Of a stretch of DNA of 17,908 bases, positions 417-15,077 are shown one piece after another. This stretch comes from Gemmatimonadales bacterium (GTDB lineage: Bacteria > Gemmatimonadota > Gemmatimonadetes > Gemmatimonadales > GWC2-71-9). The translations under genes and the position numbers were made by a program. The stretch lies in the NCBI GenBank assembly GCA_039794085.1, contig JBDIWC010000068.1:1-17908 (forward strand), in the 5' to 3' direction. Numbering within the stretch: the first letter of the stretch is position 1; the number at the start of each line of letters is the position of its first letter. The notes below the pieces were generated by a model. The model was given only the letters and a program-made list of their open reading frames with translations, was not told the origin of the DNA and did no database searches.

Positions 417-449
417 CGAAAACGTCGTAACCCGAATAAAATCAGGCAC

Positions 450-477
450 TTGCGCGATTTTTCCAGAGTGGTATCTT
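450..477 (+). promoter_or_regulatory. sigma70-type promoter with extended -10
   Basis: -35 TTGCGC 450-455, 16-nt spacer, TGn-TATCTT (TG 469-470, -10 at 472-477), A-rich tract upstream. Predicted start near 482-485. Confidence 0.6.
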
Positions 478-481
478 GTTG

Positions 482-900
482 CTGTCGGCACGGTGCCAAA
501 GGCCTTCTCAGGGGACGAGGCATCACCGCTGACAGGTTCGGGCTGGAGCGCAGGGGAAGGATCGGGAGTGCAAACACCCATCCTGTTGATCCTGATGATC
601 ATGCCATCCCGGGCAGGTGGAGCCAGTCGCGCGCTCCATCCACCCCGACGCGGCGCCTCGGGGTGCAGTGCGAAAGGTCGGTCCGCGACCCGATCCGAAT
701 CGCAGCGCCCGCACGAATGAACCAGGCGGGATGGCCATCCGGCCTGGGGATGGAAGCTGAGGCCTCGTCCTGCCCTCCCGATCGGCGAAACAGCCAAACG
801 GTGGCAGGCGGGAGAAGAACGGTGGCGAAAGCGCTGACCTCGGGTAATTCGTGTGCGGGACGGCCGTCGCAGCCCAGTGCTGGACGGCCGTTCCTGTTTT
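482..900 (+). ncRNA. candidate large structured ncRNA or leader (~415 nt), family unrecognised
   Basis: Bounded by a promoter and a terminator. Helices 482-489/528-535, 544-551/631-638, 558-563/588-593, 641-648/658-665, 669-673/700-704, 676-680/686-690, 708-718/847-859, 722-727/742-747, 775-780/809-814. Overlapping ORFs look non-proteinaceous. Confidence 0.55.
857..900 (+). terminator. intrinsic (Rho-independent) terminator
   Basis: GGGACGGCCGTC 857-868 pairs with GACGGCCGTTCC 883-894, inner CAGC/GCTG, followed by TGTTTT 895-900. Confidence 0.75.
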
Positions 901-14937: not shown

Positions 14938-15015
14938 CCCGCTCTCAACACCCGACAACCAGGGCATAGGACATAGGACATAGGACATAGGACGTAGGAC
15001 GTAGGACATTGGACA
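14917..15015. repeat. heptamer arrays ACAGTGA x3 (14917-14937) and TAGGACR-like x7 (14967-15015)
   Basis: Direct reading; the last ACAGTGA supplies the ankyrin stop codon. Confidence 0.9.
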
Positions 15016-15077
15016 TCAGTCGGGCCCGAATCAATTGGCTGGGTAGCATCGGCCTGCCAATTCGACATCCAGGCAGG

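Follow-up and report, generated by a model that had tools for sequence, protein, structure and literature searches.

A stand-alone structured RNA of Gemmatimonadales with a constant double-pseudoknot core and a co-distributed orphan protein

The window analysed here, the whole 17,908-nucleotide stretch of a Gemmatimonadales contig (JBDIWC010000068.1 of assembly GCA_039794085.1), almost certainly holds a real, stand-alone non-coding RNA gene at positions ~483-900 of the plus strand. The RNA is ~415 nt long and belongs to no catalogued family; its proposed function is set out below. It is preceded by a sigma-70-type promoter (450-477, plus strand) with a -35 element TTGCGC at 450-455, a 16-nt spacer and a -10 element TATCTT at 472-477, from which transcription would start at ~483-485. 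The original prediction had read this as an extended -10 promoter, and a TG does stand before the -10 hexamer, but it is the -35 element and not the TG that is conserved; the pattern TTGC(G/A)-N17/18-TAnnnT could be located upstream of the RNA core in 75 of 92 copies. A 22-nt element directly before the -35 (TAACCCGAA.AAA..CAGGCAC; 428-449, plus strand), most positions of which are common to 52-75 of these 75 promoters, is possibly an activator or UP-like site. The gene is closed (857-900, plus strand) by an intrinsic-terminator-like hairpin at 857-894 with a U-rich tail, TGTTTT, at 895-900, and most homologues, shortened ones included, likewise end in a GC-rich hairpin and a T-run. The strong terminator and U-tract predicted at 900 stand as to the hairpin-like end, but the U-tract is moderate, and a consensus scan of positions 1-1500 called no promoter and no terminator.

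Further upstream lie DnaA-box-like hexamers (334-416), namely TGTGGA at 334-339 and TCCACA at 348-353 and 411-416. Two to five such hexamers occur within 150 nt before the -35 in 63 of the 75 copies with a located promoter, whereas random 150-nt genome windows contain two in 34 of 20,000 cases and three in none. We take the hexamers to be DnaA sites by the E. coli box consensus, and the region upstream of the genome's own dnaA has TTTTCCACA beside TTGACT; together these suggest that DnaA may bind at the boxes. Second copies of the RNA in one genus (g35) have the upstream box pair in reverse orientation. A reading of the boxes as the replication origin appears less likely, as they also precede second copies elsewhere and a denser cluster is present at positions 2980-3300 of contig C32 (L295). 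This AT-rich intergenic region, with many TCCACA/TGTGGA boxes, is a candidate oriC or DnaA-box cluster and lies upstream of a 471-aa ORF that presumably resembles a class II aldolase.

Positions 1-215 of the window are the end of a repeated element with 27 copies (this one included) of at least 100 nt at 90-100% identity, none of them more than 200 nt from the end of a contig; it is probably an unassembled insertion sequence that parted the RNA from its usual upstream gene. Heptamer tandem repeats of the ACATAGG and CCCCAGCA types at 207-330 and 14960-15020 turn up in many other parts of the genome, often beside the repeated element. Downstream, on the same (plus) strand as the RNA, a small Fis-family HTH gene occupies 996-1403, and 27 of 92 loci have a gene of this family close to the RNA.

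Homologues were sought in related genomes, as the original prediction had advised, and BLAST matched the stretch in 27 of 40 relatives, while a covariance model of the core (613-712) matched 74 of 151 genomes of the phylum. The carriers are 71 of 72 genomes of the window's own family and both genomes (2/2) of a sister family; there were no matches in 31 genomes of a further family, which we infer to be the type family, nor in 45 genomes of nine others, making 0 of 76 other phylum members. One Gemmatimonadaceae title among the carriers described below argues against a clean split along this line. More than one match (2-3) is present in 18 of the 74 carrier genomes. A broader model matched none of 40 non-carrier genomes of the phylum, in a search run without a positive control, and none of 28 mixed genomes, where both positive controls were detected. 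When 185,579 genomes were scanned with a relaxed pattern, 19 of the 120 matches listed were real by the model and 101 scored at most 25 bits. All 19 real loci among the matches listed are titled Gemmatimonadales, Gemmatimonadota, Gemmatimonadetes or, in one case, Gemmatimonadaceae, and it is from these titles that the clade is named as Gemmatimonadota; more distant relatives may exist, and the scan gives at least 19 real loci. None of 24 viral loci from a pattern search was real by the model (one viral pattern recovers 29 of the 92 known copies), and a looser viral pattern gave one real match among the 120 listed. The latter (L309, 660-778), a 5'-truncated fragment of the RNA at the extreme end of a 3248-nt IMG/VR contig, most likely arose through chimeric assembly with an abundant RNA of cellular origin. 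The two 26-row alignments used below include one unpublished genome (G016), which also contributes to the core model, and a second unpublished genome (G081) is counted in the tallies of the RNA and of the orphan protein; both were left out of the 92-copy alignment.

The case for a folded RNA rests on covariation among these homologues. A structure of 104 pairs is 95.2% paired over 26 full-length copies, and two-sided changes occur in 69 pairs against a shuffled mean of 38.8, with none of 500 shuffles as high. Over 92 copies, 97.4% of 3493 cells of the core are paired, and the two pseudoknots are paired in 98.0% and 98.9% of cells in this alignment, which was fitted to the nested helices and not to the pseudoknots. 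A tree was also built from that core alignment; on it, paired columns change together on a branch 111 times, whereas shuffled partners do so 20 +- 5 times (at most 42 in 2000 shuffles), and compensatory events include six in pseudoknot 1 and five in pseudoknot 2. The reading as protein-coding sequence is rejected on indel lengths and phase-free conservation: among the 131 indels in 536-855, 97 have a length that three does not divide, and the three codon phases are conserved alike (0.78, 0.79 and 0.81). The absence of protein-like conservation leaves the RNA call standing. Folding energy by itself does not reveal the RNA, and this part of the proposed checks is weak beside the strong covariation. 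The z-score of 482-900 is -2.10 for the plus and -2.36 for the minus strand with the terminator; without it, at 25 shuffles each, the values are -0.58 and -1.69. The plus strand scores better than the minus in eight of nine copies tested, again with 25 shuffles each, the window being the exception. The assignment to the plus strand is thus upheld by the orientation of promoter and terminator and by G-U-tolerant covariation in homologues, but not by the folding energy of the window.

The RNA (all features on the plus strand) comprises a variable 5' hairpin and three side-by-side domains. The centre is a constant core of ~95 nt (616-709) with hairpins at 616-640, 641-665 and 669-704, in which the loop of the first hairpin kisses that of the third to form pseudoknot 1 (626-631/684-689), and the loop of the second pairs with the 3' tail over 5 bp to form pseudoknot 2 (652-656/705-709). 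The junction letters GC 665-666, GA 697-698 and AG 704-705 are invariant. Domain I (536-614) has a closing helix 536-545/604-614 and inner helices 551-555/590-594 and 558-561/581-584, which are 89.6-97.4% paired with two-sided changes, and a small stem-loop with a GAUC centre at 595-602. Domain III (710-855) consists of a junction closed by 710-718/847-855, a helix 757-762/838-843, hairpins 764-812 and 820-836 and a further hairpin with a GGCC loop at 722-747, and contains the conserved single-stranded words GAAC, GGGAU and AGAAGAAC. Conserved letters throughout sit in helices and junctions and not in one long seed for pairing with a target. The 5' hairpin (482-535) is variable in sequence and absent in several copies, with no consensus helix recovered; all eight of its pairs form in the window's own copy, but by alignment column homologues pair in only 55 of 131 cells, so that the sequence of this predicted 5' domain is not conserved.

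Much of the fold originally drawn from the sequence is kept in homologues, including hairpins 641-665, 669-704 and 722-747, the closed junction (209 of 224 homologue cells paired) and the hairpin at 820-836 (75/75 cells). The two GNRA-like loops proposed at 570-573 and 827-830 recur as a GNRA word within three columns in 16 and 24 of 26 aligned copies, respectively. On the other hand, the perfect 8-bp helix claimed to close a domain (544-551/631-638) is a feature of the window genome only, being paired in 50.0% of 190 cells with 367 of 500 shuffles scoring as high; homologues instead pair 536-542/608-614 and 616-623/633-640. The hairpin proposed at 748-770 is similarly not conserved (68 of 122 cells), its positions 757-762 pairing with 838-843 instead (148 of 150 cells). 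The accompanying caution that high GC content inflates chance pairing was right for these two helices, and the two pseudoknots had been missed altogether.

While the core is constant, the outer domains have been lost separately in some lineages. Copies without the 5' hairpin, without domain I or without domain III exist and are closed by a terminator-like hairpin; domain I is lost or reduced to one hairpin in some, domain III is partly or wholly missing in others, and seven (L080, L088 and L082-L086) have little beyond promoter, core and terminator. Second copies at unrelated loci have their own terminators, and part of them keep the promoter pattern. Second or third copies (L062-L073, L075-L079, L081, L029 and L030) mostly lack the 5' hairpin, and in some of them domain I is a single hairpin. 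In one genus (g8; L028 and L087), pseudoknot 1 has decayed and domain III is lost, with domain I and pseudoknot 2 remaining.

A search of positions 380-1000 of the window and of one homologue (L010) against the 4227 families of Rfam 15 gave no match at the gathering score, the leftovers being chance miRNA and lncRNA rows at E-values of 1.7-7.9; the suspicion of an unrecognised class, with raiA, OLE, GOLLD, ROOL and HEARO among the families to be checked, was borne out. The RNA is also not RNase P, tmRNA or SRP RNA, as had been argued from missing signatures, for the genome has its own copies of these elsewhere (RNase P on contig C28, tmRNA, and SRP RNA on contig C32) and none matches the window. 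The description as a large, independently transcribed structured RNA agrees with the homologues, the covariation, the conserved promoter and terminator and the absence of a coding signal. A published description was not found in the searchable literature, a scope outside which most subscription journals fall; the main text of PMC11109978 does not name Gemmatimonadota, and its supplement could contain the motif. Our verdict is that the RNA is a new family, to be placed in the loosely defined class of large, structured orphan RNAs already known from bacteria.

The most consistent companion of the RNA is an orphan protein of ~203 aa, found once per genome in the same 74 of 151 genomes as the RNA and in no others. 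At 69 of 92 loci its gene lies within about 2 kb (the fetched flanks) of the RNA: 61 of these genes are upstream in the same orientation and eight are downstream and convergent, an arrangement for which one inversion suffices. The 23 loci without an adjacent protein gene are 21 second copies, one further locus (L009) and the window, whose genome retains both RNA and protein gene on different contigs (protein at C27:32705-33328, L102). Members of the protein family (another lies at L002:629-1255) are 36-81% identical across two Gemmatimonadales families, show a weak internal duplication and are net acidic (K+R-D-E median of -6 in 54 sequences). No Pfam or NCBIfam family scored above its cut-off, and no PDB sequence match or Atlas match was obtained; a profile search of 1.84 billion representatives returned 137 matches, a few of them full-length family members and most of them fragments. 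The predicted structure, a mixed alpha/beta chain modelled at a pLDDT of 88, found a best Foldseek E-value of 0.024 and a best VIA Z-score of 5.8 over 68 residues, and matched no RNA-binding fold; these searches of a model point to no clear known fold and do not thereby prove a new one. A YhaM-like HD protein resembling a 3'-5' exonuclease (E-value 7.5e-20, far below its family's cut-off) is encoded next to the RNA in 30 of 92 loci, mostly convergent, its gene ending near the RNA terminator in 29.

Expression is suggested by metatranscriptomes. Of 24 runs listed with word shares of 0.10-0.21, the contigs of four were examined, and in all four they include pieces lying within 498-853. One size-fractionated metatranscriptome (X6) yielded nine short contigs from several relatives, eight of them at depths of 13-347, and another run (X2) gave, in addition, two short pieces outside the RNA. 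Being strandless sequences of relatives that come without a DNA control, these contigs are consistent with an abundant transcript but do not prove it.

We propose, with a probability of about 0.4, that the RNA is an independently transcribed, abundant, trans-acting protein-binding RNA, a scaffold or decoy in the manner of raiA/ModT. Its own promoter and terminator would yield a discrete transcript acting in trans, the core would fold into a compact three-dimensional surface that is the functional part, and the RNA would form a ribonucleoprotein of which the orphan protein is the first candidate partner and the YhaM-like exonuclease next door, in part of the clade, a second and weaker one. The DnaA-like boxes would link transcription to replication or growth state, and for this reason the RNA probably acts at growth transitions. 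This reading is favoured by the promoter and terminator, the covarying fold, the constant double-pseudoknot core and the dispensable outer domains, by conserved letters that do not form one pairing seed, and by relatives' contigs at depths of up to 347. The sharing of 74 of 151 genomes and adjacency in 69 of 92 loci would fit a partnership of RNA and protein. However, shared history alone can explain their co-occurrence, since the two genes lie next to each other and the carriers are a single clade made up of two sister families, and the one genome of the window's family without both may reflect a single deletion or an assembly gap. Against the protein as partner, it is net acidic and its model matched no RNA-binding fold, it remains well preserved alongside RNAs that lack domains or have a decayed pseudoknot 1 (L028 and L087), and second RNA copies come without a second protein copy. 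Against the YhaM-like protein, it is adjacent in just 30 of 92 loci and mostly convergent.

By analogy, the RNA may work most like raiA/ModT (RF03072). As described in PMC12968392, raiA has a two-pseudoknot core, variable peripheral stems and a P1 helix joining its 5' and 3' ends, with PK1 formed between the P3b loop and a single-stranded linker and PK2, of 2-4 bp, beside PK1; PMC11706538 reports action on growth transitions and first evidence of association with protein. Both are orphan non-coding RNAs with a compact two-pseudoknot core and variable outer stems, and both contain GCCAGUCGC, whose loop forms a 6-bp pseudoknot; the likeness of the cores is one of analogy only, and the pseudoknot partners differ. 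The AGUCGC loop here pairs with the hairpin loop at 684-689, and the second pseudoknot is a 5-bp loop-to-tail pairing; unlike raiA, the Gemmatimonadales RNA has three side-by-side domains and no helix joining its ends, is about twice as long and belongs to another phylum. Membership in the raiA family fails on model match, P1 and pseudoknot wiring: RF03072, a model that detects raiA in Nocardioides, gave no match up to E 10 in positions 380-1000 of the window or in L010 and none in the window's genome, and our broader model scores the Nocardioides raiA at 6.1 bits.

An alternative that we regard as rather unlikely, and that is compatible with the protein-binding reading, is that the RNA forms dimers or oligomers by itself through self-complementary loops, the assembly being the functional unit. 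It would then resemble OLE, ROOL and GOLLD, which are likewise large, multi-domain and covarying and likewise have palindromic four-letter loops that change from one self-complementary word to another; in OLE and GOLLD, according to PMC12286853, such switches pointed to kissing loops between molecules. Of the 48 copies in which the stem-loop at 595-602 takes an 8-nt form, 41 have a palindromic centre (GAUC in 37, AGCU in two, GUAC and GGCC in one each) and three more are wobble-compatible. GAUC also persists at the tip of the single hairpin to which domain I is reduced in some copies. In hairpin 722-747, 53 of 57 main-locus copies have a GGCC loop and one has GAUC. However, the 8-nt element is absent in 44 of 92 copies, which have ordinary hairpins or no domain I, four of the 48 forms are not self-complementary, and most of the palindrome count is one inherited GAUC. 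The 722-747 loop is non-palindromic in 16 of 20 second copies scored, and the core-only copies have neither loop. Unlike those RNAs, ours has no Rfam match, is smaller and, in the loci read, shows no tie to phages or to arrays of tRNA genes. A further parallel is with OLE, whose protein partners are encoded close to it.

We consider it unlikely that the RNA binds RNA polymerase as a 6S-, Ms1- or CoRP-like replacement for a lost 6S RNA. It shares with 6S (RF00013) and Ms1 (RF02566) a stand-alone and probably abundant nature, has a strong housekeeping-type promoter and belongs to a clade without detectable 6S. The Rfam 6S model finds nothing in 72 genomes of the window's family or in two of the sister family, against 9 of 17 genomes of other classes, where 6S lies between zapA and rny; one unpublished genome (G118) is counted in this 6S survey. 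This gap is 1-71 nt in all eight genomes measured of the window's family (G000 C2:108455-108500, L264; L265-L294 for further loci), which shows that 6S is gone from its old place; elsewhere the gap is 91-263 nt in three of four cases from the sister family and 9-238 nt in five of the six loci measured (10 fetched) of the putative type family. Among relatives of the same class as the window's genome, 6S went undetected in 129 of 130, and other classes of the phylum keep it. The putative type family nevertheless has neither detectable 6S (0/31) nor the RNA (0/31), so the loss of 6S is not matched to a gain of the RNA. The RNA has no RF00013 match and no conserved long duplex with a central bubble, whereas 6S is a rod of ~180 nt with such a bubble; the core-only copies have no long duplex at all, and the RNA does not sit in the zapA/ygfA/rny context of 6S. 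Similarity to Ms1 was absent in either search direction: RF02566 gave no matches at E 1 in the window's genome, and two actinobacterial Ms1 loci gave no nhmmer match with the full profile and at most ~6 bits by the broader model over the Ms1 span. A supposed likeness of domain I to Ms1 was not borne out by these two real loci.

That the core is a ribozyme or a ligand-binding aptamer in trans, with accessory outer domains, appears improbable. A double pseudoknot of ~95 nt is of the size and topology class of small ribozymes, and the invariant junction letters would suit such a role, but Rfam ribozyme and riboswitch matches are absent, a self-cleaving RNA would need no promoter and terminator of its own, and pseudoknot 1 has decayed in one genus (L028 and L087). 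A cis element is highly improbable, whether as leader or attenuator of the gene that follows, as an antisense terminator RNA to the convergent yhaM-like gene, or as something produced incidentally by a cluster of DnaA boxes. In its favour, the Fis-family gene starts at 996 on the same strand, convergent yhaM-like genes end near the terminator in 29 loci and boxes lie upstream. Against it, the gene after the RNA differs between loci in both identity and orientation, the sister family and L080 carry the RNA inverted with respect to the genes around it, and no conserved helix could serve as an alternative anti-terminator. Core-only copies together with second copies at unrelated loci also imply that it is not the leader of a fixed gene.

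The protein-binding reading could be extended to a new ribonucleoprotein system in which a DnaA-controlled RNA of undescribed double-pseudoknot fold binds the orphan protein, forms dimers by way of its palindromic loops and links the state of replication to transcription or to the decay of RNA. It might also recruit the YhaM-like exonuclease, or stand in for the lost 6S by recruiting RNA polymerase; we offer this as a doubtful yet conceivable scheme. Few large structured non-coding RNAs are near-universal in a bacterial clade, and those already solved (RNase P, SRP, tmRNA and 6S) do core biochemistry. The Gemmatimonadales RNA offers good handles in its ~95-nt minimal core, as delimited by natural deletions, its two covariation-backed pseudoknots, a candidate regulator and a candidate partner protein with an identical distribution, a confident model and no clear structural match. 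It is open to in vitro probing and structure solution without culturing of the host, and provides an independent case for asking what compact RNAs such as raiA do.
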